DNA of 64,000 bases, taken from positions 5,952-69,951 of IMG/VR virus record IMGVR_UViG_3300044801_000187. One strand, 5' to 3'. A program made the position numbers and the translations under genes. The notes under the pieces are model-generated. The model saw only the letters and a program-made list of their open reading frames with translations. It was not told where the DNA came from and did not search any database. Positions within the stretch are counted from its first letter, which is position 1. Every line of letters begins with the position of its first letter. Source of the stretch: a virus. Below, piece by piece: positions 7,861 through 34,000 of this stretch.

Positions 7861-7932
7861 AACCGGGCACCGGGCACCCCTCACCGTCAAGTCTCTCTAA
7901 ACTTCGAACGGCGGGTGCCCGGTTTCCTTTTT
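7861..7932 (+). terminator. Inverted repeat or possible terminator after rIIB
   Basis: AAACCGGGCACC...GGTGCCCGGTTT followed by a T-rich tract; contains a tandem CGGGCAC duplication. Confidence 0.45.
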
Positions 7933-7966
7933 GCCCCGCAAACGGCTGATTCCAGGGGGAATAAAG

Positions 7967-7997
7967 CCGGCCATTTCCCCCGCGCAAGGCGTATACT
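7967..7997 (+). promoter_or_regulatory. Putative promoter CCGGCC-N19-TATACT
   Basis: Upstream of the Ku RBS GGAGG; recurring motif. Confidence 0.65.
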
Positions 7998-8017
7998 GTG
8001 TCAGGAGGGAACATCAA

Positions 8018-8920
8018 ATGGCGAAGAAATCAGCAGCAGACGTGGCCGCCGACCTGAAGAGCAAGATCGACGAAGCCAACAGCACCCCGGAAATCCTACG
8101 CACCCCCGAAAAGAAGAACGCCTCGAAATCCGTGTGGAAGGGCTACATCAGCGCCTTCGGCGTGATGCTCATCCCCGCAGCCGCCTACAAGGCGACGGAC
8201 GAGGACAAGATCGAGCGTCACATGTACCACTCCGCCGAGTGCCTGAACTCGCTCCAGCAGGGCAAGATGAACTGCGCTGGCTGCGGCGCGACGGGCGTCG
8301 ACAAGTCCGCCGCCGTGAAGGGCGTCGAGATCAACGGCAAGATCGTGCTCCTGTCGGACGAGGAGATGGAGTCTCAGAAGCCCGCCTCCGACAAGGTCCT
8401 CAAGGTCACGGAGTTCGTCCCCGTTGACGCGGTGGACCCGACCTACTACGCCTCCAGCGAGTACCTCGCTGCGGGAGAGGGCGGCGAGAAGGCGTTCGCA
8501 ACCTTCCAACAGGCGCTCGCCAGCAAGAACCGCGTGGCGATCGGCACCTTCGTGAGCAAGGGGCACCAGTTCACGGTCGCCATCCGCGCGAAGGGTCAGT
8601 ACGGGCTGGTCATGTCCTACCTGTACGCGGAGCACGAGGTCCGCAACTGCGGCAAATGGAAATCCGTGCAGACCAACCCCGAAGAGGTCGCCCTGTGCGA
8701 GCAACTGATGACGGAGACCGAGTACGCGAAGGAAGTTTTCACAGCCGCCGCGTACGACCCGTTCATCGCAAAGACGCGCAAGATGATCGCGGACAAGGCC
8801 AACGGCATCGCGGCTGCGGAGCCGACGAAGTGCGAAGAGCCGAAGCAGGGCACCGACGACCTGCTCAGCTCGCTCAAGACGATGCTGAACCAGCAGAAGG
8901 CGAAGGCCGCGAAGGCGTAA
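8018..8920 (+). CDS. ku: Ku DNA end-binding protein
   Basis: SVWKGYISAFG...YKAT, VKGVEI..KIVLLSDEE, EFVPVDAVDPTYY...YL and DDLLSSLK match prokaryotic Ku; RBS GGAGG. Confidence 0.85.
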   Translation: MAKKSAADVAADLKSKIDEANSTPEILRTPEKKNASKSVWKGYISAFGVMLIPAAAYKATDEDKIERHMYHSAECLNSLQQGKMNCAGCGATGVDKSAAVKGVEINGKIVLLSDEEMESQKPASDKVLKVTEFVPVDAVDPTYYASSEYLAAGEGGEKAFATFQQALASKNRVAIGTFVSKGHQFTVAIRAKGQYGLVMSYLYAEHEVRNCGKWKSVQTNPEEVALCEQLMTETEYAKEVFTAAAYDPFIAKTRKMIADKANGIAAAEPTKCEEPKQGTDDLLSSLKTMLNQQKAKAAKA

Positions 8921-10866: not shown

Positions 10867-11247
10867 ATGACGACAAGGCCCCACAAGGGCGACGGGGTGG
10901 ACGCGCTGAAGCGGCACCTGGACACCGTCGCGGTCATCACCCTGCACCTGTTCGGCCTGGACATGGAGCACGACGCCAGGTACGCCGACCTCCAGCGGTG
11001 CATGGAATCCTCCTTCGGGGGGCGGGGCTGGGGCAAGCACAAGAAGGACAGGTGGATGTACACCAAGTCCAACCATGAGATAATCGACATCTGCCTCGAA
11101 AGGGGCATCCCGCTAGTCTGCTTCGGCGACCAGCCGTTCCGCAAGACGGAGAAGCTGCCGCCCCGCGTCAAGAGGACGTGCGTGGCCAAGACGGCGACGT
11201 ACAGGTTCCCGATCCACATCTACGAGAAGATCGACATCCGCCTATGA
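10867..11247 (+). CDS. Hypothetical protein (5' end uncertain)
   Basis: High-GC3 ORF; stop overlaps the Nudix start. Confidence 0.5.
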   Translation: MTTRPHKGDGVDALKRHLDTVAVITLHLFGLDMEHDARYADLQRCMESSFGGRGWGKHKKDRWMYTKSNHEIIDICLERGIPLVCFGDQPFRKTEKLPPRVKRTCVAKTATYRFPIHIYEKIDIRL

Positions 11248-11769
11248 AGAAGACCAAGAAAAAGCGCCCGGAGATCGGCGTCGGCTGCCTGGTGGTGAAC
11301 GCCTCCGGGAAGATCATGCTATGCAAGCGCCTCAAGCCCTACGGCTACGGCAAGCTCCCTCCCCGGCGGCCACCTGGAGTGGCGAGAGTCGCTGGCGGAC
11401 TGCGCCAAGCGCGAGGTGCTTGAGGAGAGCGGCGTCGCACTGGGCGAGATCACCAACCTCGACCACTACACAGAGGAGATCACCAGGGGGCGGCACTACA
11501 TCACGTTCTACCTGATCGCCCCGCTGCCGGACGGCCAGGAGCCGAGGCGCACGGAGCCGAAGAAGCACGGCGAGTGGAACTGGTACGACCCGTTCGACCT
11601 GCCCGACCACGCCTGGGCACCCACGAAGCGCCTGGTGACCAAGTGCGGCCCGCGCATCATCGCCGCCATCAACAGGTTCGTGTTCGACGCCAGGAAGAGG
11701 CATGAGATGCGCGTGGAGGCGGTCACGAAGCCCTCCGGGCGGAAGGGCGTCAAGATCACCATCGGATGA
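11244..11769 (+). pseudogene. Nudix hydrolase, frameshifted near 11358
   Basis: RPEIGVGCLVVN...GYGKL in one frame, then LPGGHLEWRESLADCAKREVLEESG (Nudix box) in another. Confidence 0.75.
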
Positions 11770-11975
11770 AAAACTGCGAGCACATGTGCCACCAGGGCCG
11801 CGGCCTGAACCCGTGGGTAGAGACCTGCCGCGTCTGCGGCTGCGCGAACCCGCGCTACGACGCCGCGAACGCCTCCGCCCTGCGCGAGGCGTGGCTCGTG
11901 GAAATGGAGCAGATGGGCTGGCGTGACATCCGCGAGACCGTGGCCATGATCGACCTCGTGCGCGCAAGCCTCTGA
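11766..11975 (+). CDS. Small Cys-rich hypothetical protein
   Basis: ATGA overlap; CEHMC...CRVCGC. Confidence 0.5.
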   Translation: MKNCEHMCHQGRGLNPWVETCRVCGCANPRYDAANASALREAWLVEMEQMGWRDIRETVAMIDLVRASL

Positions 11976-11993
11976 TAACAGGATACTTTCAGC

Positions 11994-12024
11994 CCGGCCG
12001 AACCCGCCCCCTCCGGCGTATACT
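11994..12024 (+). promoter_or_regulatory. Putative promoter CCGGCC-N19-TATACT
   Basis: Upstream of the ligase RBS GGAGG; recurring motif. Confidence 0.65.
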
Positions 12025-12041
12025 GTTGGAGGAGGGACGCC

Positions 12042-12842
12042 TTGATTAAAGCCGAACTGCTCCAAGACGCCACGGACGCCCAGGTCAAGCGTTTCATGAC
12101 CGACCCGACCTACGTCTGGGAAGAGAAGCACAACGGCGACCGCCGCCTCATAGCTAAGCAAGGCCTGGACATCAACGACTTCAATCGGAACGGCGAGCCC
12201 GCGAAGGGGCTTCCGCCGAACGTCATTGACGCCCTGCGAAAGCACCCCCTCCACAAATTCGTGATCGACGCAGAGTACGTCTACGCCGAGCGCCCCGAGA
12301 AAATCTACGTGTTCGACATGCTGCACTCGGGCGACGACGCGATCGTCGCGCTGCCGCTGTCCGCACGCAAGGGATACCTGCACTCCGCGTTCGACGGCTT
12401 CCACCCCGACGTTCCCGTCGTGGAGAGCGCGGCGACCCCGCAGGAGAAGTTGGCGCTGATCGAGCGCATCATGCGCGAGCACGGCGAAGGGTTCGTGATG
12501 AAGGACCTGACCGCCCCGTACCGCCCGTCGGACGGCAACCGCCGCTGGAATTTCAAATATAAATTCTGGAAGACCACAGATTGTGTGGTTCTCGGACCTT
12601 CACCGAAAGGGCACGACAGCGTTCGAGTCGGGGTGTACGACGAGACCAATAAATTGATTGACATCGGCGGCATATCGCTAGTCAGCAAAGAAAAACTGGC
12701 TATAAGAACTGTAGTAGAGGTAAAATACTTGTATTCAACACGTAATCGTCACATAGTTCAACCATCGTTGCTACGCGTTAGAACGGATAAGGAAGCCAGA
12801 GAATGCACCACGAGCCAGCTTGTAACGGGCAAGGGCCAGTAG
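12042..12842 (+). CDS. Minimal ATP-dependent DNA ligase
   Basis: EEKHNGDR (motif I), IDAE, YVFDML, GEGFVMKD, W.KYK and OB-fold VEVKY...QPSLLRVRTDK; the last about 290 nt are lower GC. Confidence 0.85.
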   Translation: MIKAELLQDATDAQVKRFMTDPTYVWEEKHNGDRRLIAKQGLDINDFNRNGEPAKGLPPNVIDALRKHPLHKFVIDAEYVYAERPEKIYVFDMLHSGDDAIVALPLSARKGYLHSAFDGFHPDVPVVESAATPQEKLALIERIMREHGEGFVMKDLTAPYRPSDGNRRWNFKYKFWKTTDCVVLGPSPKGHDSVRVGVYDETNKLIDIGGISLVSKEKLAIRTVVEVKYLYSTRNRHIVQPSLLRVRTDKEARECTTSQLVTGKGQ

Positions 12843-13495
12843 TTTACAGAATACGAAACCTGCGTAACGGAAAGAGGTATATAGGCTCCACGATGAATTG
12901 TGCGTCGCGGATGTACTACCACATCAATAGTCTGCGCCGACGCAAAAGCAAATGCTTGAAATTGCAGAACGCATTTACCAAGCATGGAGAAGACAATTTC
13001 GTGTTCGAGATCATAGAGCATTGCACTGAGGAGAATCTGATCGAACGGGAGCAACACTACTTAGACCAAAGACCGGAGTACAATATCAGCTTTATCGCCG
13101 GACCGAAAACACGATATGGTTTGAAGTCAACACCAGAACATCTGGCGAACATGAGTAAGGCCCTAAAGGGGCGCATCAGCCCGATGAAGGGGAAAAAGTT
13201 CACGGTGGAACACAAGCAAAGGCTAAGTGAGTCCAACAAGAACAAGCATATAGGAAACACCAGCCGCCGCATAGACTTGACCGGAAAAAACTTCGGGAAG
13301 TGGTTTGTAATAGGGCCGGGTAAGCGGAACGCCGAAGGCAAACTATGGTGGAGAGTGCGATGCCGCTGCTGTAACACCGAGAAAGAAGTGGAAGGCTCAC
13401 TGCTTAGGAACGGACGTTCTCGAAGCTGCGGTAGTATCAAAAGGAATTCAAAAGAATGGCGAAGAAACGCAAACTCGACAAGGTTCAGATGGTGA
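12803..13495 (+). CDS. GIY-YIG homing endonuclease with NUMOD3-like repeats
   Basis: VYRIRNLRNGKRYIGST...REQHYLD...EYNI; low GC. Confidence 0.8.
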   Translation: MHHEPACNGQGPVVYRIRNLRNGKRYIGSTMNCASRMYYHINSLRRRKSKCLKLQNAFTKHGEDNFVFEIIEHCTEENLIEREQHYLDQRPEYNISFIAGPKTRYGLKSTPEHLANMSKALKGRISPMKGKKFTVEHKQRLSESNKNKHIGNTSRRIDLTGKNFGKWFVIGPGKRNAEGKLWWRVRCRCCNTEKEVEGSLLRNGRSRSCGSIKRNSKEWRRNANSTRFRW

Positions 13496-13545
13496 AGGAA
13501 ATGTCGCGTGACCGCATCGGTCAGATTCAGACCGAGAAGGTTGTG

Positions 13546-13756
13546 CCCCCCGCACCTCTTCCCCGACCAGGACTACGACAAGTGGGGCAACCCGCTCACG
13601 GAGAACGGAATGCGGATGCGCGGCGAGACGGCGGCGTGATCAAACTGCTGGAGTCCATGGGCGACGCGTGGACTCTTCTACGAGGAGCCCGTGCAGAAGG
13701 TCCTGGCGCAGTCAATGCACCTGTTCACCGACAGGATCAAGTACCCGCGCACCTAA
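13546..13756 (+). pseudogene. Orphan high-GC fragment of an RNA-ligase-linked gene, interrupted by a 45-bp insertion
   Basis: Reads PHLFPDQDYDKWGNPLTENGMRMRGE[45 bp]LFYEEPVQKVLAQSMHLFTDRIKYPRT*; IKYPRT recurs at the start of the gene at 14840. Confidence 0.7.
13628..13672 (+). repeat. Exact 45-bp copy of 33532-33576
   Basis: acggcggcgtgatcaaactgctggagtccatgggcgacgcgtgga is present at both loci. Confidence 0.95.
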
Positions 13757-13818
13757 ATCAAAGTTCAGAAGCACCAACTTATCGGCTCCGCATATTTGTA
13801 TGAACCTTTGGAGGGGGA

Positions 13819-14283
13819 ATGCTCTCAAACCGACTCAAGGCGATGATTGAGCAGTTCAAACAACAATATCAAGGGTACGGCGCGCAAAGCGGTGCCCTTT
13901 ACAAATGCGATGACGCTTCTAACCTTTTCATAAAGTTCGTTCGAGAAAAGGATAGCCTGTTAGTTTACGATCTGGACATCCACTGTTTCGAGTTCACCGT
14001 CAATGATTGCATCGGCCTCTGTCCATCGATCTATATGAAGGGGGAAAACGAAATGGGCCTATCGCGGGCAAGTTGGCATTGCATCGTGAATACCAAAAAC
14101 GTTCTGATCGACTGGACGGCAAAACAGTACGTAGAGACAGCGCCATTCCCGCTCATCATTGTCAAACGGTTTTTGACGATTCAGAAAATTGACGGAGACT
14201 ATTACAAAGCGATTCGTCCCGCTTATTTGCCGATCCGCAAGGCGGAACTTTTGGCGAAAGCTGCGGCAGTCGGACATGTGTAA
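13819..14283 (+). CDS. Transglutaminase/papain-like Cys-His-Asp domain protein
   Basis: KCDDAS...WHCIV...LIDWTAKQY resembles two modules in the 39-42 kb polyprotein. Confidence 0.5.
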   Translation: MLSNRLKAMIEQFKQQYQGYGAQSGALYKCDDASNLFIKFVREKDSLLVYDLDIHCFEFTVNDCIGLCPSIYMKGENEMGLSRASWHCIVNTKNVLIDWTAKQYVETAPFPLIIVKRFLTIQKIDGDYYKAIRPAYLPIRKAELLAKAAAVGHV

Positions 14284-14322
14284 AGTACCCACGGTTTACG
14301 AACTATGGTATACTTTGTATGA

Positions 14323-14856
14323 ATGGCATCTGCACAACTACGGCTCTATCATCGACGAAAAAAGCTTGGACTTTGTGTCACCTGCGGTAACGTGCCGCCA
14401 CGGGAGGGAATCGTCAGATGCAATCAATGTGCGTCCGACCGTTGCGAAGTCTCAAAGCGGCAGAAGGCTCGCCGCCCGAAAGGGGTTTGTAGGTCGTGTC
14501 TGAAACGAAAAACCGCGAAGGGCAAAAGCACTTGCCAAAAATGTAGAAGCAGAGAAGGATAAAGGTCTAAGCAGAAGTATCGAGAAATTCGACTTCAAGT
14601 AATCGTACTTTATGGAGGAAAGTGCCAGTGCCCTTGGTGCAACGTGACCAATCCGAAGTATCTCCAGTTGGATCACAAAAATAACGACGGTGGAAAAGAG
14701 CGGAAGTCATTACCCGCAACGCTTAGAGGGGGGCGGTTTTTTGAACTCGTGTTGAAACAAGGCAAGAGAGACGATTTACAGCTTTTGTGTGCAAATTGCC
14801 ATCAAGCTAAAAGGTATGGCGGCTGCGCTAAGGAAGATCATGACCACGCCAATTAA
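14323..14856 (+). pseudogene. HNH endonuclease with in-frame TAA at 14560-14562
   Basis: The frame continues after the stop: YGGKCQCPWC...LQLDHKNNDGG...LQLLCANCH. Confidence 0.75.
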
Positions 14857-15472
14857 ATACCCGAGAACTATGCATTTTTTGTGGAGCCCCGGCCTTCAAA
14901 ACGATGATCGTATGCTAGAATCCACCGCTGATTGGCGGGGTCGGCAGGTGATCGTCACCGAGAAGATGGACGGGTCCAATTGCAGTTGGTATCGTGACGG
15001 TATGCACGGTCGATCCCTTGAAATAGACTCCCACCCCCAATGGGACAAAGTCAAGGCCCTGCACGCCGAAATCGCGCACGAAATCCCCCTCGGTTGGCGA
15101 ATATCGGGGGAGAACATGACCGCCGTCCACTCGATCAAATATGACGATTTGCTCTCACTCTTCTTGGTGTACTCGATCTGGAACGAGGACAATTACTGCC
15201 TAAGCTGGAGTGAGACGGTGGAGTGGTGCGCGTTGCTCAATTTGGTGCATGTCCCCGTGATCTACTGGGGTGGGTATAGCGACGGTGTCTGTAAGGGTTT
15301 GTGCGGTCAGTTGGATACTAATGTACAGGAAGGGCTGGTTGTTCGCCCAGCCGATAGGTTCCATTTTCGTGATTTTTCTACCTCGGTTGCGAAGTGGGTT
15401 AGGGCTAATCACGTTCGTTCGAATTCGGAGCATTGGAGCACGGGAAATATTCAATTCAACGGGGTTAAATGA
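14840..15472 (+). CDS. RNA ligase (nucleotidyltransferase family)
   Basis: KYPRT.H..WS, VTEKMDGSN, ISGEN, EGLVVR and AKWVR..HV. Confidence 0.8.
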   Translation: MTTPIKYPRTMHFLWSPGLQNDDRMLESTADWRGRQVIVTEKMDGSNCSWYRDGMHGRSLEIDSHPQWDKVKALHAEIAHEIPLGWRISGENMTAVHSIKYDDLLSLFLVYSIWNEDNYCLSWSETVEWCALLNLVHVPVIYWGGYSDGVCKGLCGQLDTNVQEGLVVRPADRFHFRDFSTSVAKWVRANHVRSNSEHWSTGNIQFNGVK

Positions 15473-15812
15473 ACCCTGTGAATTTTGCTTTTTTGCGTTC
15501 CAGAAAGACTGTGGAACCGTCATACATATAGTGATAAACACGGCGCAAGTTTTCGATGTTAGAAATGCAAACGTTCCTACCCTTTTGTGCGTTTGGCGGA
15601 TTGGTCGTGCGGATGCCGTTGGCGTGTAGGCCATTCCGTAAGGCGGGAGCCGCAGAATGAATTGACCAACGCCCATAGTTGGAACGAACTGCGCCAATGT
15701 TTCCATCAGCGCCGAATAGACCCCGCACAAAATGACGGCGAAGATAGTTGGGAATATCGGGAAAGATGGCGGTAAACGTTGTGTTCCATACTATACAATA
15801 CTGTGGGCACAA
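15465..15812 (-). pseudogene. LAGLIDADG endonuclease C-terminal fragment
   Basis: HFVRGLFGADGNI ... YMYDGSTVFLERK. Confidence 0.6.
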
Positions 15813-15847
15813 AACATTTCTAAACTAACGAACACTGGATTGGTCGA

Positions 15848-16309
15848 ATGCCGCCGAAGATCAATGACGATTACACGTGGGTCAGCTTGGGGATCATTCG
15901 ATCTCCGATCCATCGGTGGGGTGTCATTGCCAAACAGACCATCCCGAAGAATAAGTACGTTATTGAGTACACGGGACAGTTGCTCAACCGTCGCCAAAAC
16001 AAAGCGATTAGAGCGGACGGACGGCGGTATTGCTTCACTTATCTTACTGATGACCGTGGATACTGGACACTAGACGGAGCCGTGCGAGGCAGCGGTGCCG
16101 AGCGCGTTAACCACTCCTGCGACCCAAACCTTTACGCGGAGATTCGCGGGCATCGAGTCTACTTCTACTCCCTTCGACGCATCAAGAAGGGCGAAGAACT
16201 GACCGTGGATTACCAGTTCGAGTACAGTAAGACCCCCGTTGCTTGTCTTTGCGGGATGAAGAAATGCCGAGGCACGATCAACCTGTTGAAAGGCCAAGCA
16301 TCCAAATGA
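15848..16309 (+). CDS. SET-domain lysine methyltransferase with post-SET Cys motif
   Basis: SPIHRWGV, EYTG, NHSCDPN, IKKGEELTVDY and CLCGMKKCRG. Confidence 0.88.
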   Translation: MPPKINDDYTWVSLGIIRSPIHRWGVIAKQTIPKNKYVIEYTGQLLNRRQNKAIRADGRRYCFTYLTDDRGYWTLDGAVRGSGAERVNHSCDPNLYAEIRGHRVYFYSLRRIKKGEELTVDYQFEYSKTPVACLCGMKKCRGTINLLKGQASK

Positions 16310-16804
16310 AACGCTCTCCCGTATCCAAACGAATTGACGTAACGGGCCTCCTGAAGCGTCCGACTCTCTACATCGACATCGACGATACCATCCTCGCCTG
16401 CATCTGGGATGGCAGTGGCTTCGATCTCCGACCGAACGTCATGACCCAACTTCGGGTGCTCAAAGAGCTTTACAACGTTCGCTGGCTCACCTGCTGGCCG
16501 TATGAGCCGCTGGAACTCCTCTTAAAGAGCCTGTACGGGCAGGACATCTGGCGGGATACCGTGTACGAAGACTGGCGTGCTGGCTGGGAGAGCGGCAAGG
16601 GAGAAGGTACACGCCGTGCTAGACGGCCCGAAGGACTGGTACTGGCTGGAAGACCCTCTTTACGGTGAAGACTTGCTTCAACTGCGCTCGGCGGGGCTAG
16701 AACACCGTTACATCCGTGTTGAGCCCAGAGGACCGTGGGGATTCGCCGATGCTTGCCGAAAACTTTTCGAACTCACAAACTCTCTCAGGTCCATGCCCGT
16801 ATAA
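16306..16804 (+). pseudogene. HAD-superfamily protein, frameshifted near 16600
   Basis: LYIDIDDTI and WLTCW in one frame; EKVHAVLDGPKDWYWLED in another. Confidence 0.6.
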
Positions 16805-16812
16805 TACCGGGT

Positions 16813-17166
16813 TTAGCCCTTCGGCCCCGCCGTCCCGGCGCTGGGGTCGGGGGCTGCGGGCGCGGGAGCCGCGCTGGCGCTGGCCGTCGCGGAGTTCGTG
16901 TTCGTGTTGTCGTTGTTCACGTTTACGTCGACCGTCGGGGCGGACGTCGGGTCCGGCCACTTCTGGTAGACGAGGGCGTGGCCGCCGAGGAAGCCGTAGA
17001 AGGCGTACAGGGAGCTCACGAACCCGGGCGGGAGGTCCTTGCCCGTGTGGGCGCAGTACGCAAACGTCACGCAGAACACGAAGATGGCGATCGGCACATG
17101 CGCGTCGTTGGTCAACTTGTCCAGGAAGGCCTGTATTTTGCTCTTTTGCTCGCCGAAGAATCCCAT
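16813..17166 (-). CDS. Small two-TM membrane protein (holin-like)
   Basis: Two hydrophobic helices and a low-complexity tail. Confidence 0.5.
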   Translation of the reverse strand: MGFFGEQKSKIQAFLDKLTNDAHVPIAIFVFCVTFAYCAHTGKDLPPGFVSSLYAFYGFLGGHALVYQKWPDPTSAPTVDVNVNNDNTNTNSATASASAAPAPAAPDPSAGTAGPKG

Positions 17167-17227
17167 TGTAGTCCCTCACTTAGGGGACGGAAAGTAGGGA
17201 AAATCCCGACTATCCGGTACTATAGTG

Positions 17228-17414
17228 CAGGAACGAAATCGCAGCGGATGATACGGACTGCCCGGAGGAACACCGGAACCGAACGCCGCTGGTAGTGGGG
17301 GGCTGAAACCCCTCATGGGGGAGCTCCCTTGCCCCTTTCCCGTGGTTGGGAGTCCGTCGCGAAGGACCACGGGACGCCTTCTTGGAACGCCGCCTCCGGG
17401 CGGCGTTCCTCTTT
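17228..17414 (+). ncRNA. Candidate independently transcribed structured RNA
   Basis: TATAGT -10-like box at 17221; stems CAGCGG/CCGCTG, TGGGGGG/CCCCTCA and TCCCGTGGT/ACCACGGGA; ends in a terminator. Confidence 0.45.
17384..17414 (+). terminator. Intrinsic terminator
   Basis: GGAACGCCGCC-TCCG-GGCGGCGTTCC-TCTTT. Confidence 0.7.
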
Positions 17415-17478
17415 CCGTTCTCCCCCGCCTTTTATTTGTCATCTCCCTTTGATACACTGGCATCTAAGAGGTGTGGAC

Positions 17479-17907
17479 ATGCCCAGAAGAGTGGAAGCCT
17501 ACGAGGACCCCATAACAGGAACCGTCTACAAGACCGCCCAGGAGGCGGCCGCCGCCGAGAACAAGCTCAGCAGGAAGAAGCTCGCGGAGCTGAAGCGCCG
17601 TATCAAGGCGGGCAAGTTCTGGCTGCCGCAGGTCGGCGAGTACATCTACACCCGCACCTCGATCTCCTGCGACCATGGGGAGACCGACGTCGCGGGCGGC
17701 CTGAGCACGGTCGTCAAGGTCTACTTCGGCATGAGCGGCGGGGACCCCAAGACCCCGTTCGTCGAGATCGCGCAGCACGACCGGGGCGGCTGGAACTGGC
17801 GGATACTACAGGAGGAGCAGAAGGAGCTCATGAAGAGGCACGGCAACAAGTTCGCCTACCCCGACCCGGACCCGCGCGACTTCTACGACCCGCACGAGTG
17901 GCAATGA
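17479..17907 (+). CDS. Hypothetical protein
   Basis: RBS GAGGTG; high-GC3 codons. Confidence 0.65.
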   Translation: MPRRVEAYEDPITGTVYKTAQEAAAAENKLSRKKLAELKRRIKAGKFWLPQVGEYIYTRTSISCDHGETDVAGGLSTVVKVYFGMSGGDPKTPFVEIAQHDRGGWNWRILQEEQKELMKRHGNKFAYPDPDPRDFYDPHEWQ

Positions 17908-19016: not shown

Positions 19017-19218
19017 TGGTTACCATCGTTTTTTCGAGCGCCGCTGCGGGCGCGGCCGCATCTAATAGACGAGGCGGATTTTACATGGTTACGAGGAAAA
19101 TACGCTGCGACGTGACAACGGTCGCAAACGGGGACTTTTCCGCCCCTAGAAAGAAGGGCTTGTGGGCGTAGTCCAGGCTGTGAAGCAGGCGCTAAGCCCG
19201 CAGGCGACAGGTGACCCG

Positions 19219-21738
19219 GTGAAGACTGGCATCAGGCAGCCCCTCGACCCAAGCAGGCGGAGTCAGGACGCACGAGACTTCGAAGACAAGATGCGGCGCA
19301 AGATCATCGGCCAGGACGCGGCCGTGGACAAGGTCGTCGGCATCTACCAGATGTTCCTCGCCGGGCTGAACCCTCCGGGGCGGCCGGTCGGCAACCTTCT
19401 ATTTTTGGGGCCGACGGGCAGCGGCAAGACCCGCGTGGTCGAGGCGATGGCCGAGACCCTCTTCGGGTCCACCAACGCCTGCATCAAGATCGACTGCGCC
19501 GAGTTCCAGCACTCCCACGAGATCGCCAAGCTGATTGGGTGTTTCGTTCCCGGTTCCCGAGTCCTCATGGCTGATGGTACGTCCAAACCCATAGAGGATG
19601 TCAAAGTCGGAGATTTGGTCATCACTAAGGATGGCACTGTTCGTCAGGTGACTTTCCTGCATAGATATGAGCAAAATGGGCCGATGGTGCGGTTAGACAT
19701 CGGAAATAGCAACGTGCCGGTAACCTGTACGCCAACACACATGATTTGGGCGATCAAGGCAAACCGGGGAAACAAAAGAGCGACTACCAAGGCGGGGCGT
19801 GATGTGGGGTCTCAGTATCTCCCGGAAAATTTGGAATATGTGGCGGCGGGGACGTTGCAAAAGGGAGACATAGTCGCCTACCCAAGGCAGAAATTCGTGT
19901 GGAACGCCGAACCCATGGCGATGGCGGCGAGTGTAGGAGCGGGGAGCGTGGGGGAAACAAGCTCCACACCAATGTCAGGAATCGTCGGTAAGACCATTGA
20001 TTTGGCGGAGTACGGGAAAGGAGTTAAAGGATTCTGTTTTGATGCTACGCATGTATGGTGCAGCCAGGGGTTTAACCTTTCTCGTTTTACTAAATACGCC
20101 AAGAAAATCGGACTAATTGAAAGGCGGTTATCTTGGGGGGCTAAGTTAACCCGCTTCATCAGAATTGATGAAGCATTTTGCAGATTGTCTGGATTTTATT
20201 TAAGCGAAGGAGGCAACAGCAAATCGCGGAGGAGCATAAATTTCACATTCGGAGGTCACGCACAAGATGGACCATGTGTACAGGAGGTTGTAGAGCTTCT
20301 TGAAAAAGTGTTCGGTGGCGGTACAGTTAATGCAAAAAACCGAGGAGGGAGTGTTCGAATCTACTACTTCTCTAAGATTATTGGGTTGTTAATGGCCGAC
20401 CTTTTTGGGGATTTCGTGCTAAGGAAACACTTGCCAGAGTGGTTCTTCAGGTTGGAGCCGAGGTTGCTGTGGAATTTCCTCGATACGGCGTTCCTCGGGG
20501 ATGGCGGCAAATCCGTGCCTCGCCGCTTGGACTATTCTACCTCGTCGCCCGACTTGGCCTCCCAGATGCGGCTGATGATCCACAATTTGGGGTACACCAC
20601 CCAGATGCAGCGGCATGAACGAAAAAAAGATAAACGCGGGTACAAGGTTTCACCGCGCTATCGGCTGTATGTCGCGGGGGATCAATTCATGCGGTTTGTT
20701 GACAATTTGCCCTCCATCCGCAGGAGTGCGAATGTGTTCAACCCCGGCAACGCTGGAATCCAACGTATGTCGCATGTGGATGACGACTATATCTATTTTC
20801 GCATCAAGGGTGCGGGCACGGTGCTTTACAAGGGGCTTGTCCATGATTTTTCTGTCAATGAAAAAACATCGTATGTTGTTGAAAATATGACAGTTAGCAA
20901 CAGCCCGCCCGGATACCTGGGGCACCGCGAGACGCACCCGCTGCTCACGCAGGAGGCGCTCAACCAGTGGCACACGGAAAAGCTGAAGCTGTCGATCCTG
21001 CTCTTTGACGAGATCGAGAAGTCCTCCGACGCCCTGTGGCAGCTCCTCCTCGGCGTCCTGGACAAGGCCACGCTCACGCTCGGCGACAACCGCCGCGTCG
21101 ACCTGTCCCAGTGCATCATCATCCTGACCTCAAACCTGGGCGCGGCCGACATGCAGACCCTCATGGAGGGCGGCATGGGCTTCAACGTCCCGAGGGAGCA
21201 GATCGTGGTCGACCAGGCGCTAGACGACAAGATCGACCGGACGGCCATCGACGCGGCGCGGCGCAAGTTCGCGCCGGAGTTCATGAACAGGATCGACGGC
21301 ACGGTCGTGTTCAAGACCCTGCGCGACGAGCACGTCCGGCAAATCCTCAACATCGAGCTCGCGATGGTGCAGCAGCGCATCCTCTGGGCCGTCGGCGGCA
21401 AGCAGTTCGTCTTCCAGTGCACGCAGCGGGCCCTGGACGCGGTCCTGGCCGAGGGCACCGACCCGAAGTACGGCGCTCGCCACCTCAAGCGCACGATCGA
21501 GCGCCAGCTGGTCTTCCCGCTCGCCAACATGACGGCGACGGACCAGATCAAGCTCGGAGACTACATCGAGGTCGACTACGAGGGGCCGATCCCCGCGAAC
21601 GGCCAGCCGTGCGAGGGCAAGTTCGTCTTCACGAAAGCTGCGGAGAACGTCATGGTCCCGAACCTCCTGAAGAACATCGGGGCGCTGGGGACCGCCGCCC
21701 CCACGGGCCGGGTGGTCATCCCGAAGAAGATCGTCTAA
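19219..21738 (+). CDS. ClpA/ClpB-family single AAA+ (D2-like) ATPase containing an intein
   Basis: IIGQDAAV, FLGPTGSGKT, KLIG|SPPGYLG, LLFDEIEK, PEFMNRID and YGARHLKR. Confidence 0.88.
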   Translation: MKTGIRQPLDPSRRSQDARDFEDKMRRKIIGQDAAVDKVVGIYQMFLAGLNPPGRPVGNLLFLGPTGSGKTRVVEAMAETLFGSTNACIKIDCAEFQHSHEIAKLIGCFVPGSRVLMADGTSKPIEDVKVGDLVITKDGTVRQVTFLHRYEQNGPMVRLDIGNSNVPVTCTPTHMIWAIKANRGNKRATTKAGRDVGSQYLPENLEYVAAGTLQKGDIVAYPRQKFVWNAEPMAMAASVGAGSVGETSSTPMSGIVGKTIDLAEYGKGVKGFCFDATHVWCSQGFNLSRFTKYAKKIGLIERRLSWGAKLTRFIRIDEAFCRLSGFYLSEGGNSKSRRSINFTFGGHAQDGPCVQEVVELLEKVFGGGTVNAKNRGGSVRIYYFSKIIGLLMADLFGDFVLRKHLPEWFFRLEPRLLWNFLDTAFLGDGGKSVPRRLDYSTSSPDLASQMRLMIHNLGYTTQMQRHERKKDKRGYKVSPRYRLYVAGDQFMRFVDNLPSIRRSANVFNPGNAGIQRMSHVDDDYIYFRIKGAGTVLYKGLVHDFSVNEKTSYVVENMTVSNSPPGYLGHRETHPLLTQEALNQWHTEKLKLSILLFDEIEKSSDALWQLLLGVLDKATLTLGDNRRVDLSQCIIILTSNLGAADMQTLMEGGMGFNVPREQIVVDQALDDKIDRTAIDAARRKFAPEFMNRIDGTVVFKTLRDEHVRQILNIELAMVQQRILWAVGGKQFVFQCTQRALDAVLAEGTDPKYGARHLKRTIERQLVFPLANMTATDQIKLGDYIEVDYEGPIPANGQPCEGKFVFTKAAENVMVPNLLKNIGALGTAAPTGRVVIPKKIV
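19540..20901 (+). mobile_element. Intein (454 aa) with LAGLIDADG endonuclease
   Basis: Starts CFVPGSRVLMADG and ends VVENMTVSN|S; contains GFYLSEGG and AFLGDGG; splicing restores KLIGSPPGY; lower GC. Confidence 0.9.
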
Positions 21739-27479: not shown

Positions 27480-28034
27480 ATGAACAAAAACATCAAAAAT
27501 TTGATCGGTCAGAGGTTCGGCAGGCTCGTAGTGACTGAATACGCAGGAGCCACGGCGGGCGGAAAAGCCCAATGGACCACCGTCTGTGACTGCGGCGTAG
27601 AGACCGTGAAGACCGGAGTCTATCTGCGCAAGGGCATTACAAAAAGCTGCGGCTGCCTGCGGGGAGAGAACACCAAACTGCCTGAGGGGGTATCGGCGAG
27701 AAACTCTATCCTGCGTTCCTACAAAAAGCACGCCAAGGAGCGAAACCTCGTCTGGGAAATCTCAGAGTCGTTGTTCAACGATTTGACTAGCCGTCCGTGT
27801 TTCTACTGCGGCGTAACTCCTGGCAACAAGTACTCTAAAAAGGACTCCAATGGCGTCTTCATCTACAACGGCGTTGACCGGAGTGATAGCCACAAGGGAT
27901 ACTTTTTGGAGAATGTGGTACCGTGCTGCGCGATGTGCAACCGGGCGAAGATGGTGATGATCCGGGAGGAGTTCCTCTCATGGGTCGATAGGGTTTACCT
28001 CCACCAGCACAAAAGCGAGGCGGCGCGTGCTTAA
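27480..28034 (+). CDS. HNH-type homing endonuclease
   Basis: RFGRLVV, CDCG, KSCGC, PCFYCG and NGVDR..GY..NVVPCCAMCNRAK. Confidence 0.8.
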   Translation: MNKNIKNLIGQRFGRLVVTEYAGATAGGKAQWTTVCDCGVETVKTGVYLRKGITKSCGCLRGENTKLPEGVSARNSILRSYKKHAKERNLVWEISESLFNDLTSRPCFYCGVTPGNKYSKKDSNGVFIYNGVDRSDSHKGYFLENVVPCCAMCNRAKMVMIREEFLSWVDRVYLHQHKSEAARA

Positions 28035-30090
28035 AGTGTCAGACAAGCTCCCCAACATGCACTCCACGATGTTCAGGAAAATCCCCGTCGTCATACAGTG
28101 GCCCAAAGGCTCCACAAGAGTTGGCGAGCGGGAGGACGGAACGCCGTTCAAAACTGAAATGACGGCTGACTACGGGTATATTCCCGACACGGTAGCCGCT
28201 GGAGATTCTGAGCGCCTGGACATCTACATCGGGCCGAACGAGGACGCCGAGAACGCCTACGTCGTGGAGCAGATGAAGGAGGACGGCGAGACCTTCGACG
28301 AGTACAAGGTGCTGCTCGGCTTCGACAGCCTGGACGAGGCGGAGGAGACCTACCTGGAGCACGTCGAGGAGCAGCAGCTCGGCGACATCTCCGAGGTGCC
28401 GTTCGAGTACCTCTTCGACACGGTCATGGAGGAGCGCGGCGAGGACGAGGAGCAGGAGCGCGAAGAGATCGGCGCGGAGCTGGAGCAGGACGAGCAGAAG
28501 GTCGCGGCCGTAGAGCCGGACAAGGTCGACACCGACCCCGGCGTAGAGTTCAAAAGGATGTTCGAGTACCTGAACTCCCTCGGCTGGCTAGGCAGGAACC
28601 CGTGGTACCCAGAGAAGTGGCCGTTCTTCGCGATGCGCCTGTACAGCGACGGGTGGAAGTGGTCGCGGTGGGACAAGCCCGAGGCGGAAGGGAACAACCT
28701 CGCGGACCTGAAGAAGTTCCTGGCGCAGTTCGACCTCGGCAAGCTGAAGACCCCGAAGACGCCGACAACCATCAACGCGCAGCCTGTGCCCAGGAAGCTG
28801 AACGCGGGGCACGACGAGGAGCAGCACGGGGAGAAGCTGTCCGTGATCGACGCCTTCGTCAAACTCTACAAGCACGAGGTGGACTTCTACGAGGAGGTCG
28901 CCGCCATGGTCGCGGAGGAGCTCGACGGGGCGATCCAGGACGCGGGCATCCGCGCCATTATCACGCACCGCGCCAAGAAGCCGAACAGGCTGCGCGGGAA
29001 GCTCGTGAAGCGGGACCAGAACAGGCACTACCAGTCCTTCAGGGACATCAAGGACGACATCGTGGACCTGGCCGGGGTGCGCGTCGCGCTGTACCTCCCG
29101 AAGGACAGGGACGCGGTCGGCGGGATCATCGAGAAGCTGTTCGCCCCCGTCCGCGCCCCCAAGCGGTTCCCGGAGAACAGGAGCGAGGGGGACGGCGTCG
29201 GCTACGTGGCCACGCACTACCTCGTCCAGCTGCGCCCCGAGAACCTGCACAAGAAGGAGCTCCGCTACGCGGACACGAACGTGGAGATACAGGTCGCGTC
29301 CGTGCTCATGCACGCCTGGAGCGAGGTCACGCATGACCTGACGTACAAGCCGATCGCGGGGCCGCTGACGGAGGACGAACTCCGCATGGTCAACGACCTC
29401 AACGACGTGGTGCAGTCCGGCGAGGCGATCCTCAACGAGCTCCAGGAGGCCGTAGAGGGCCGCACCTCCAAGGAGCTCAGGTTCGACATCACGGCGGCGC
29501 TCACCGCGCTGGCCGGGAAGACGGCGGCGGGCAAGGTCACGTGGACGGAGACCATAGGCGTCGCGTCCAGGCTGGCGGCGCTGGACCAGAGCGGGGCGCT
29601 GAACGGGTACATGAAGGCCCTCGGCTGGGAGCAGATGGGGCCGTCGCAGTGGTACAGCCCGACCCACCCGCAGGACGTGGTCCACGTGTTCCACGACGGC
29701 TGGATTCACGCCCAGTGGGGCAGGAACATAGGCTCCGGGGACGGCGAGCAGGACCTCAAGGCGTGGCTCGGCCAGGTGGGCCTCGGGGAGGCGCAGCACC
29801 CGCACAAGCAGAGGCCCGTCACGCTCGGCGAGGGCGGCGTGCACACGAGCTACCTGAGGGCCAGGCTGGCGCTGTGGAAGGCCCACAAGGCGGACGAGCT
29901 GGATGACAGGCTGAGGGCGTATAATGAGACTCTGCCGAAGCTCCCGGTCGGAGACGAAAGGTACATGGAGCGGGCGCTCGACGCCCTGCACCCCGGCAAG
30001 AGCATGACGGAACTCTGGGCCCTGCCCAAGGACGAGTATCACAAGGTAATCGCCCTGGCGCAGGACTTAAAAAAGCAGGCAAACACCTAA
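28027..30090 (+). CDS. Polyvalent protein: inorganic pyrophosphatase plus RelA/SpoT synthetase domains
   Basis: PPase: DYGYI...D.ERLDIYIG...FDEYKVLLGF. RelA/SpoT: RAK...DLAGVRV...GY.ATHY...EIQV.S..MHAWSE..HDL.YK. Confidence 0.85.
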   Translation: MLKVSDKLPNMHSTMFRKIPVVIQWPKGSTRVGEREDGTPFKTEMTADYGYIPDTVAAGDSERLDIYIGPNEDAENAYVVEQMKEDGETFDEYKVLLGFDSLDEAEETYLEHVEEQQLGDISEVPFEYLFDTVMEERGEDEEQEREEIGAELEQDEQKVAAVEPDKVDTDPGVEFKRMFEYLNSLGWLGRNPWYPEKWPFFAMRLYSDGWKWSRWDKPEAEGNNLADLKKFLAQFDLGKLKTPKTPTTINAQPVPRKLNAGHDEEQHGEKLSVIDAFVKLYKHEVDFYEEVAAMVAEELDGAIQDAGIRAIITHRAKKPNRLRGKLVKRDQNRHYQSFRDIKDDIVDLAGVRVALYLPKDRDAVGGIIEKLFAPVRAPKRFPENRSEGDGVGYVATHYLVQLRPENLHKKELRYADTNVEIQVASVLMHAWSEVTHDLTYKPIAGPLTEDELRMVNDLNDVVQSGEAILNELQEAVEGRTSKELRFDITAALTALAGKTAAGKVTWTETIGVASRLAALDQSGALNGYMKALGWEQMGPSQWYSPTHPQDVVHVFHDGWIHAQWGRNIGSGDGEQDLKAWLGQVGLGEAQHPHKQRPVTLGEGGVHTSYLRARLALWKAHKADELDDRLRAYNETLPKLPVGDERYMERALDALHPGKSMTELWALPKDEYHKVIALAQDLKKQANT

Positions 30091-31025: not shown

Positions 31026-34000
31026 ATGAGTTTGTTGGACAAAAAAGCAGCGAAGTTACCTAAAGGCTTTCGCGTTACCCTCCAAAAAGATAAAAGCGGA
31101 GTGTATTACGGCGTTATCTGGAAAGATGGTATTTTCTCAGGCACGTGTCCCATCGCGCATCAGCTTCAAGATACAGCCCGTGCTGCCGCCATTGGGTATG
31201 CTTGGGACATGTCAGGAGAACAGAGACCACCGGACAAACAAGCGTCTATGGACAAAGACGCTAAACTCCACGAGAACGCCTCGACGCAGATCGACGTTCC
31301 GACCAATGTTGCGGCGAAAATACTTGAGCTTAGCAAAGGGCTGATTCCTGATGATGCCCTCTCTGGGGATGGTCGCGTTGAGCATCTGCATTTGACCTTG
31401 AAGTACGGCGTCAAGCCCGACGCGGAGCTCCTCCGCCAGGCCCTCGTCGGCCAGCAGCCCTTCACCGTCACCCTCGGCAAGGTCATGGTCTTCGAGCCGT
31501 CGGAGACGACGGAGTCCCCCGTGGTCGTCGAGGCGCGGGCGGCCGAGCTCGGCCCGCTGCACGAGTCCGTGGGCGAGAAGATGGGCACCTTCCGCGACAC
31601 CTTCCCCTACAACCCGCACGTCACGGTCGCCTACGTCCGCCCGGACGCGGCTGAGCAGTTCGCGGGCAGCGACGCGTTCGCCGGGATCACGTTCCGGGCC
31701 AGCGCGGTCACCCTCTCCAAGCAGGACGACGACAACCAGGTGAAGCTCCCGCTCGGCAAGACGGCCGCCAGCCCAGGCGTGGCCCCGGAGATTCCGCAGC
31801 GCCCCGAGGTGAAGCGCGACGAGCCAGCCGTGGAGCCGCAGCCCGAGCCGGGGCAGAAGAAGCCCGCGCCCAAGAAGCAGCCCAAGAAAAAAATGACGCC
31901 GCAGGACGCCGACAAGCTAGTCGGGGACGCGGCGAGGAGGACCAGGAAGAAGCAGAGGCCGATGCGACCCACGGAGACCCCGCAGTTCAAGGCGTGGTTC
32001 TCTGGGTCGAAGATAGTGGGAGCCGACCGCAAGCCCCTCATGCTGTTCCACGGCACCACGCACGAGATCACGGAGTTCGACCCCGCGAGGGCGAGCGCCG
32101 AAGCGTGGTACGGCCCCGGCCTGTACTTCACGGACTCGAAGATAGACGTGGCGGCGAACTACGCCACGGACAAGGGCCCGGACATCACCCGGAACATCGA
32201 GAACCGTGCGGACTCCATCATGGACGACCTGCGCGAGGAGTACGAGGAGGCGAACGAGCACAGCCTGGACTACAACTCCGAGGACTACAAGGAGCTGTGG
32301 GCCAAGGCGTACGACACGGTCAAGGGTGAGTTCGCGGGGCCGAACCTCGGCGTGACAATGCCCGTGTACGTCAACATGAAGAACCCGGTCTACGTGCTCA
32401 AGAAGGGCGGCACGGAGTTCAACATCGACTTCGACGAGGAGACGGGCGAGGAGTCCGGCAGCGGGCTGGCGCTGTACAACGCCCTCAACCTCGCGGGCGG
32501 GAACTTCGGGGGAGACACGGGCAAAATCTGGGAGAGGATCACGGAGAACGGCACCGAGTTCAGCGCGTGGGACTTCGAGGACGCCGTCCGCGCGAGCGAC
32601 GACATACAGGACGACGAGGGGCGCATGGTCCCCGGGAACCTCATCGCGCAAATCTACCAGAAGATGAACTTCGACGGCATCGTCCAGGACGCATGGAACA
32701 CGTTCGGCGGCGGCGCGTACAAGAAAGATTACGGCGACGACTCTGGGATAGGCATGAAGATGGACAAGGGCGCGAGGCACTACATCCTGTGGGACCCGTC
32801 CAAGGTCAAGAGCGCGATCGGGAACGTCGGCACGTTCAGCCCGAAGAGCCCCAGCATCGTCGCGTCCGCCAGCCCCGCGCTCAGGCGGTGGTTCGGCGCG
32901 TCCAAGGTCGTGGACGACAGCTTCGAGCCCCGCGTGGTCTTCCACGGCAGCAAGTCCCCGTGGGTCACGTCGTTCGACATGGGCATGGAGGGCACGGGCG
33001 TGCACGGCTCCATGAAGTGGGGCGCGATCTGGTTCACCTCCAGCGCGGAGAACGCCGAGGAGTTCGCCGACACGCCGGAGGAGAAGACCGAGGCCAGCAT
33101 CGACGAGGTCACGGTGTACGGCAATGACCCGTACTACGCGGCCGTGTTCGACATTAACGGTGAGAGCCTGTTCGAGGTCGGCCCACACCCGACTGAGGAG
33201 GAGGCGCAGCGCGACGGCGCGACGCAGGCGACGGAGTACAACAAGCACCTCGGCGAGAACACGAACGTGCAGGGCTACTACCTGAAGATCGTCAGGCCGT
33301 ACGTCACCGACCAGGTGCCGAGGGAGAAGGAGTTCGAGGCGGCTAGGGCGGGCAAGCACGACGGGATCATCGCCAAGGACGTGATAGACGGATACACCCG
33401 CAGCGACGTGTTCGTGGTGTTCAGCCCCGCGCAGGTCAAGTCCACGCGCAGCGTGAAGTTCGACCCCGCGAGCGCCCATCTCACGGCTGCGGGCGGGAAG
33501 TTCCCCTCGTTCGCGCAGTACATCAAGAAGAACGGCGGCGTGATCAAACTGCTGGAGTCCATGGGCGACGCGTGGAACCACTACGTGGAGACGGCGGGGA
33601 TGGCCGTTGACGGCTTTGACGAGCTCCCCCCGGCGGAGCAGGAGAAGGCGGCCGAACAGTACGCCTATGAGGACCTGGCGAACCAATACGGGGACAGGGT
33701 GCACTTCTTCCGGGGCGTGATGTACCCCACGGCGATCTACCGCAAGGTTAAGCTGAAGAGCCGCGAGGAGCTGAACACGGGGAAGGTCGGCGTGTTCTGG
33801 TCCTGGAGCGAAAGCAAGGCTGAGGCGCATTGGAGCACGGGCGGCGGGAACACCGTCACGCTGAGGGCGGAGCTGGACAGCCCCAACCAGGTTGACTGGG
33901 ACGACACGATGTTCGTCAACCTCGACCCCAGCACCGGGGAGAACGAGGACGAGTGCCGCCTGAAGGAGGGCGCTAAGCTGAGGCTCACGGGCGTAAACTG

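Follow-up and report, generated by a model that had tools for sequence, protein, structure and literature searches.

An exact 45-bp self-copy in a relic RNA-ligase gene of a Ku-encoding phage: a probable scar of end joining

Introduction

Capture of DNA fragments at chromosomal breaks has been demonstrated experimentally in bacteria. Breaks made with I-SceI in Streptomyces ambofaciens and healed by NHEJ were reported to contain self-derived inserts of 30, 42 and 83 bp (Hoff et al. 2018, PMC5869714), and in Sinorhizobium meliloti NHEJ captured DNA at a chromosomal break (2019, PMC6379672). Among phages, the mycobacteriophages Corndog and Omega encode Ku, which is thought to work with host LigD to recircularise the genome (PMC4351075, PMC7719229), and the use of phage Ku for end joining is recorded for Corndog (PMC4351075, citing Pitcher 2006). 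Eukaryotic filler DNA forms a further group, in which ectopic pieces, including yeast mitochondrial DNA, captured Ty cDNA and NUMTs, are trapped at end-joined breaks in neutral DNA (PMC6379672, PMC2567098).

In this study, we examined a 45-bp segment that occurs twice in the genome of a phage with its own Ku homologue, once in a gene for a giant protein and once within the relic of an unrelated gene. The second copy resembles the S. ambofaciens scars in its size class, its self origin, its lack of mobile-element features and its high-GC setting with Ku and an ATP-dependent ligase; in that work, however, chromosomal breaks were induced at known cut sites and with genetic controls, whereas the phage case is natural, its break and enzymes are deduced, and no base was lost (PMC5869714). 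As in S. meliloti, a fragment would have entered a break without homology, a process that was Ku- and LigD-dependent there, but the bacterial insert was an electroporated cassette of kilobase size recovered by selection, while the phage insert is 45 bp long, self-derived and unselected (PMC6379672). The phage shares with Corndog and Omega a Ku homologue of its own; unlike them, it carries a probable internal repair scar, none being described in the portions of the accounts cited here (PMC4351075, PMC7719229), and it has its own ATP-dependent ligase beside Ku. The likeness to eukaryotic filler DNA lies in the trapping of ectopic pieces at neutral sites, although there the machinery is eukaryotic and the sources are organellar or cDNA, whereas the phage fragment came from the phage itself (PMC6379672, PMC2567098). 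A non-exhaustive search of the literature found no description of filler-DNA capture in phage genomes. What is new here is the setting only: a self-copy, in a Ku-encoding phage, within a relic at a homing-endonuclease hot spot.

Materials and methods

The window, that is, the whole stretch of 64,000 nucleotides that was analysed, comprises bases 5952-69951 of the IMG/VR virus record IMGVR_UViG_3300044801_000187 (69,951 bp; CheckV completeness 38%). Positions are those of the window throughout.

Homologous loci were collected by a metagenome scan with the RNA ligase downstream of the relic as query and by an IMG/VR scan with a full-length homologue as query, which together gave 41 loci (L003-L043). 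A tblastn search against these 41 loci returned 22 rows that span the insertion site, 21 of which were examined; L003 was omitted because it is the same contig as L014.

Contigs, rather than raw reads, of four public runs (X1-X4) were placed on window positions 11000-17000; those of X1 were built at k=31. X1 is the probable source run and may be the same data as the record's assembly, and X2 is a different peat sample from a different study.

Results

The phage and its Ku and DNA ligase genes

The gene content of the window is that of a large high-GC phage from a soil or peat setting (features of the locus are listed in Table 1), and nothing similar to window positions 12000-16500 was found among GenBank phages. 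Measured against bacterial-type Ku (TIGR02772 / PF02735), the Ku homologue scores above the Pfam cut-off and just under the NCBIfam cut-off. The DNA ligase scored 67.5 bits against TIGR02779 (cut-off 227.75) and 59 bits against TIGR02776 (cut-off 373.2), and so falls outside the NHEJ ligases as defined by the LigD ligase domain; every NCBIfam match of this protein lies under its cut-off, and only a generic ATP-dependent ligase domain is established. No relative of it was found in IMG/VR, and it may be just the replicative ligase of the phage. Two 44-nt stretches that are 70% identical (7967-8010 and 11994-12037; repeat family D19) precede the Ku gene and the DNA ligase gene, respectively, and contain GGCGTATACTGT and a GGAGGGA ribosome-binding site.

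Several other genes of the window deserve mention. Two giant polyvalent proteins with ART-PolyVal domains are encoded. A gene for a Clp-type AAA+ ATPase (19162-21738) contains an intein, whose Hint and LAGLIDADG domains separate the AAA parts, and this intein is a further homing element of the same genome. At 28027-30090, one gene joins an inorganic-pyrophosphatase domain with a RelA/SpoT synthetase domain, and a gene for a SET-domain protein (15848-16309) stands at the end of the low-GC island. Across the whole record, many 6-bp palindromes are extremely avoided, as seen in the observed and expected counts of GGCGCC (0/42), CCGCGG (2/56), AGCGCT (1/30), GCGCGC (2/38), CTGCAG (0/17), AGATCT (0/11) and GGATCC (0/7), whereas GAGCTC and GAATTC are not avoided; this pattern may be a fingerprint of the restriction systems that the phage has met.

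Table 1. Positions of the insert, its source, the recipient relic and neighbouring genes in the window.
Feature	Position	Strand	Evidence	Remark
Ku homologue, phage-encoded	7931..8920	+	Pfam Ku 3.7e-29, 102.4 bits (cut-off 25); NCBIfam Ku_bact 147.7 bits (cut-off 150)	
ATP-dependent DNA ligase	12042..12842	+	Pfam DNA_ligase_A_M 1.1e-15	266 aa
GIY-YIG homing-endonuclease gene	12803..13495	+	Pfam GIY-YIG 6.4e-11, NUMOD3 1.2e-5	Low GC
Relic, left half	13520..13627	+	DNA alignment to L007-L013; tblastn	High GC, about 0.63 vs 0.45-0.52 in flanks
Six-C run with one extra base	13546..13551	+	One-column gap in 7/7 aligned homologues	Frameshifts relic
Inserted 45-bp copy (putative filler DNA)	13628..13672	+	Identical to 33532-33576	TGA as fourth codon in the relic's frame
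Relic, right half	13673..13754	+	DNA alignment; tblastn	Ends ...DRIKYPRT, then stop codon directly; homologues go on with MHF...
Low-GC cassette replacing rest of native gene	13755..15780	+	Near-identity to L006; Pfam RNA_ligase 2.5e-29, weak HNH match	
154-aa ORF in right cassette	13819-14283	+	ORF list	No named family
Degenerate HNH gene in right cassette, two ORFs	14323-14562, 14644-14856	+	Weak Pfam HNH match	
Short-form RNA ligase gene in right cassette	ATG 14840 to 15472	+	Pfam RNA_ligase 2.5e-29	
Source copy, coding	33532..33576	+	NGGVIKLLESMGDAW	In frame in gene for 2340-aa polyvalent protein, 31026-38048

An exact and isolated copy

The initial annotation described an exact fragment from elsewhere in the genome, captured within another gene without junction homology. 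We found the two segments to be identical at 45/45 positions and in direct orientation, and the letters that flank them differ on both sides (left G vs A, right C vs A). Self-comparison of the 69,951-bp record for other isolated exact copies gave 18 nt as the length of the next-longest dispersed exact direct repeat; repeats of 30, 26, 22 and 20 nt are tandem or overlapping, and exact inverted repeats are at most 16 nt long. The identity of the 45-bp pair against this background excludes chance and indicates a single event rather than a repeat family, and since the two copies are identical, the insertion should be recent.

The details of the insert agreed with the initial description as well. 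The in-frame TGA is present in the recipient frame, no target duplication was found at the junctions and no terminal repeats were found, and removal of the insert rejoins GGC GAG / CTC TTC in frame, as is evident from the tblastn alignment of one homologue (L008), which has one gap of 15 residues exactly at the insert. Within a 115-codon frame (13456-13803), the insert is read just as it is in the source gene; the 115-aa translation of this frame had no match in a collection of 5.8 billion proteins (63-202 aa range). With or without its right flank, the insert was on no other IMG/VR contig, in a search from which the phage's own record and near-identical ones were possibly left out.

The source in a polyvalent-protein gene

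The 2340-aa protein that contains the source segment has ART-PolyVal domains in four stretches and a 2'-5' RNA ligase domain (Pfam). A paralogous module near 35935 of the same protein aligns across the source segment (E 5e-11), and five further jumbo-phage records have giant ORFs with distant relatives of the source module. Since 33532-33576 is native to a module that aligns with a paralogous one, the copy at 13628 is the derived one. The direction of copying is therefore from the polyvalent-protein gene to the relic, with the source 19.9 kb downstream of the relic.

The recipient and its homologues

The claim that the fragment was captured inside another gene stood as regards the insertion but not as regards an intact gene, the recipient being a short relic that was already frameshifted. 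In many of the 41 loci, the native gene encodes a protein of roughly 337 aa that consists of an HNH-like domain, a linker and an RNA-ligase domain. The window keeps the linker only: residues 82-137 of L008 align to 13541-13753 (tblastn, E 3.5e-19), and residues 1-81 have no counterpart upstream of 13541, the GIY-YIG gene standing in place of the native N-terminal HNH domain. At the extra C of the six-C run, the X1 contigs have no other letter. On the right, the short-form RNA ligase of the cassette starts again at ...IKYPRT, the very motif where the relic stops. Fusions of this kind, with the order HNH-like domain, linker (...YDKWGN...GELF...KYPRT) and RNA ligase, recur in soil and peat jumbo phages (L033-L042 from IMG/VR, 105-463 kb; L007-L013); of the version in the window, Pfam names the ligase part only.

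The right cassette matches a low-GC metagenome contig, L006 (1178-2234), at 100% over 100 nt and 97.9% over 957 nt. The neighbours of the matching stretch in L006 are quite different from those in the window, and identity of 98-100% amid such different neighbours points to recent transfer of the cassette between very different phages. The cassette also varies in content: L006 and an X4 contig are without 13855-14835 (981 bp, a multiple of three), and an X3 contig is without 14299-14825, that is, most of the HNH gene. The small-share runs X3 and X4, as evidence of low weight, show relatives with an uninterrupted gene across 13752/13755 to 14952, and one X4 contig skips 13594-13710; stretches lacking cover in these runs carry no information. 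Judged from these alignments, the recipient is a dead relic of 168 bp that is frameshifted and has a low-GC homing-endonuclease cassette in place of the native sequence on either side. Given that it is a pseudogene relic in a homing-endonuclease hot spot, the insert is better described as a neutral scar in dead DNA than as the disruption of a gene.

Natural presence of the segment in homologues, which the initial annotation had named as a refuting condition, was not seen: homologues do not contain it. G-E-L-F is uninterrupted in 21/21 of the loci that span the site; among the remaining loci, L040 and L041 are without the whole sub-region, eight match only from KYPRT onward and nine gave no tblastn row. 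In the DNA alignment, all seven homologues have a gap of 45 columns at the insert, exactly between GGCGA(G/A) and CTCTTC, so that the insertion point parts the Glu codon from the Leu codon in the invariant GELF motif. By these comparisons, the 45-bp insertion is real and lineage-specific.

The state of the site before the insertion bears on how the junctions are read. The Glu codon of GELF is GAA in 13/21 and GAG in 8/21 homologues, and the combination GAG/CTC occurs in none of them. The simplest parse would be a GAG/CTC site with exactly 45 nt inserted; a parse that would be indistinguishable from it has GAA, one untemplated G, 44 nt and a 1-nt overlap.

Contigs across the junctions

Contigs of X1 meet at the insert in a characteristic way. 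On the left, a contig of 14,836 nt (depth 11.1) covers the first 30 nt of the insert and stops at 13657; on the right, a contig of 2152 nt (depth 7.3) starts at 13643, 30 nt before the insert ends; and the insert itself forms a separate 45-nt contig at depth 20.2, about double and close to the sum of the two copies. At 13628 and 13672 there are also loose ends, whose letters are those that flank the segment in the source gene. A genuine 45-mer with two copies should look like this in a k=31 graph, and both recipient junctions are accordingly represented in the reads. The second peat sample, X2, yielded one contig of 761 nt (depth 8.29) that covers 13628-14271 with zero differences, indicating that the insert and its right junction are inherited in a population; the insertion is thus present in at least two peat samples. 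An assembly chimera, raised in the initial annotation as a possible undoing of its claim, does not fit contigs that carry both junctions in X1 and the right junction in X2. No contig of runs X1-X4 joins the flanks without the insert, which is a weak negative because contigs drop rare variants. Pairing the four flanks in the other way was considered and rejected; neither the 2340-codon ORF nor its module alignment would survive it, and it would part the relic halves that are contiguous in 21 homologues.

The left side differs in X2. The first 117 letters of the 761-nt contig, which lie to the left of the insert, are unlike the window, positions 13395-13627 have no cover in that run, and by bin depth there is no second contig on the insert. 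In X2, then, another sequence joins on precisely where the insert begins, which makes the history of the left junction more complex than one clean capture, and of all the observations this left flank alone could alter the conclusions. Elsewhere in the same run, contigs at depths from several hundred to about 2,200 match 16528-16686, differing at 6 of 55 nt and skipping 70 nt, which means that a related sequence is very abundant in that sample in another genome or element.

Features of the junctions

No recipient base was lost or duplicated, and under the simplest parse there is no microhomology at either junction. The lack of junction homology that had been claimed was upheld, in that the flanks differ on both sides and the similarity of the left flanks is ordinary (p 0.86). 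Beyond the junctions themselves, a number of likenesses were noted. CTACG[A/T]GGAG is common to the right flanks of the two copies, where it is offset by one base (empirical p 0.014, post hoc). The left junction is spanned by the 10-mer GAGACGGCGG, which has a second occurrence in the source at 33588-33597, 12 nt past the copied segment; the source region also holds ACGGCGG twice. The shared right-flank motif and the recurring 10-mer hint at a synthesis-based route. Both ends of the source segment fall at GA/AC inside an AAC codon (chance 0.005, post hoc), and a GAG ancestor would put the target at the centre of GAGCTC, the centres of 6-bp palindromes making up 0.76% of positions. These end and flank features were all sought after the fact, and they did not add up to a coherent model.

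Specific cutting and switching schemes were tried and rejected. A restriction cut at GAG^CTC sits poorly with the frequency of GAGCTC (43 seen against 40.0 expected) in a genome from which many other palindromes are almost absent, and with the lack of any homologue that has GAG/CTC. A GA/AC-specific cut at all three break points predicts a product that differs from the real one by two single-base indels, and a switch at GAAC microhomology from a GAA ancestor also gives a product two single-base indels off. An attachment of the GIY-YIG enzyme to the RNA-ligase gene was not borne out by its relatives: 0/80 have a gene for an RNA or DNA ligase at a distance of 3 kb or less, so that nothing ties this endonuclease to the target.

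Discussion

We propose that the 45-bp insert is probably filler DNA, captured by homology-independent end joining at a flush break, and that it is an ordinary neutral scar with no function. The native gene for an HNH-linker-RNA ligase protein was reduced to 168 bp by the GIY-YIG cassette on the left and the HNH cassette on the right. A double-strand break, flush or made flush, would then have opened in the relic, with endonuclease traffic at the locus as its likely source, and a short 45-bp duplex from another replicating copy of the genome would have been ligated between the ends by end joining. Phage Ku, together with either the phage's own ligase or host LigD, would be the obvious candidate for this reaction, and the scar presumably persists because the relic is under no selection. 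This is close to the blunt capture by Ku and a ligase that was first suggested for the locus: the insertion, its self origin, the lack of homology and the presence of the genes were all borne out, the ligated blunt fragment and the enzymes are deduced, and the assignment of the ligase to the NHEJ class failed. Since the ligase is generic by every curated model, the naming of the enzymes is presumptive. The zero loss of recipient bases is somewhat cleaner than typical NHEJ and needs a flush break. SegB, of the known class of homing endonuclease found next door, is reported to leave staggered ends, mostly 2-nt 3' ends (PMC2330249), and such staggered cutting by the adjacent class of enzyme counts against capture at a flush break.

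The main rival of end-joining capture is templated synthesis, in which a 3' end at a break or stalled fork would have switched to the polyvalent-protein gene of another genome copy as template, been extended there by 45 nt and then switched back, with no free fragment being ligated. Copying and returning would naturally preserve all recipient bases, and the imperfect homeology that lies 6-7 nt past the right junction, together with the recurrence of the junction 10-mer just downstream of the source and of ACGGCGG within the source region, is in keeping with it. Yet terminal microhomology is zero at each of the four candidate switch points if the ancestor was GAG/CTC, primer extension predicts a register one base away from that of the homeology, and the statistics are post hoc; we regard template switching as possible, though on balance unlikely. 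The insertion could instead have been made by end joining and then kept by selection, as an immunity allele rather than a neutral scar, because it split the recognition or cleavage site that a homing endonuclease, such as the neighbouring GIY-YIG enzyme, would have in the GELF stretch; cutting would then have recurred until an imprecise repair did away with the site. No part of the linker DNA is more conserved than the place of the insertion, a seemingly intact GIY-YIG gene is about 130 bp away, a GAG ancestor would put the insertion at the centre of a palindrome, and the second, different sequence at the same left boundary in X2 is what a recurrent break point would give. Against this stand the absence of ligase genes beside any of the 80 GIY-YIG relatives, the predominance of GAA as the Glu codon with no GAG/CTC among the 21 homologues, and the full complement of GAGCTC sites in the record, and cleavage of the site is predicted only; that the scar is such an allele seems quite improbable to us. 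We find distinctly unlikely a wider proposal, namely that phage Ku, with the phage's own or a host ligase, mends nuclease cuts inside replicating genomes and not only at their ends, that the filler is a selected immunity allele at the hot spot and a fossil of end joining against endonucleases, and that the left sequence of X2 is a second repair at the same cleavage point.

Two further explanations would remove the capture altogether. The insert could be an artefact of assembly or library construction, from a chimeric read or a mis-resolved repeat; the record is, after all, a metagenome assembly that was assessed from contigs, and X1 may be the very data from which it was made. Junction k-mers are nevertheless present in X1 at the depths of the left and right contigs, the right junction is present in a second sample at similar support (depth 8.29), and the flanks can be paired otherwise only at the cost of the 2340-codon ORF, the module alignment and the continuity of the relic in 21 homologues, which makes an artefact very improbable. 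Gene conversion or homologous exchange, or insertion of a mobile or regulatory element such as a MITE, a CRISPR-like spacer or a decoy RNA, might be considered because the copies are in direct orientation and the frame at 13456-13803 reads the insert as the source does. The recipient and source genes are unrelated, however, and the 115-aa product of that frame is unmatched among 5.8 billion proteins. The features of a transposable element, MITE or integrase-type insertion were not found, there being no duplication, no inverted ends and just two copies, of which one lies in an ORF; the flanking repeats that a CRISPR-type spacer would have are absent; and a stop codon in the relic's frame speaks against an intein. 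In a search of 12000-17500 for group I and II introns, Rfam yielded nothing with E of 1 or less, bar an unrelated sRNA at E 0.95, and the insert region has no significant fold, no hairpin element and no tRNA. An exchange or element of this kind is hardly credible.

Taken alone, the insert is a single neutral scar in dead DNA. If capture by end joining is the true explanation, it would be a natural, base-resolved case of filler-DNA capture in a Ku-encoding phage, of a process that has been shown experimentally for bacterial chromosomes (PMC5869714, PMC6379672). This raises the question of whether short dispersed self-copies without target duplication are enriched in Ku-encoding phages, and the 45-bp scar would provide a concrete substrate for asking what phage Ku does beyond circularisation.
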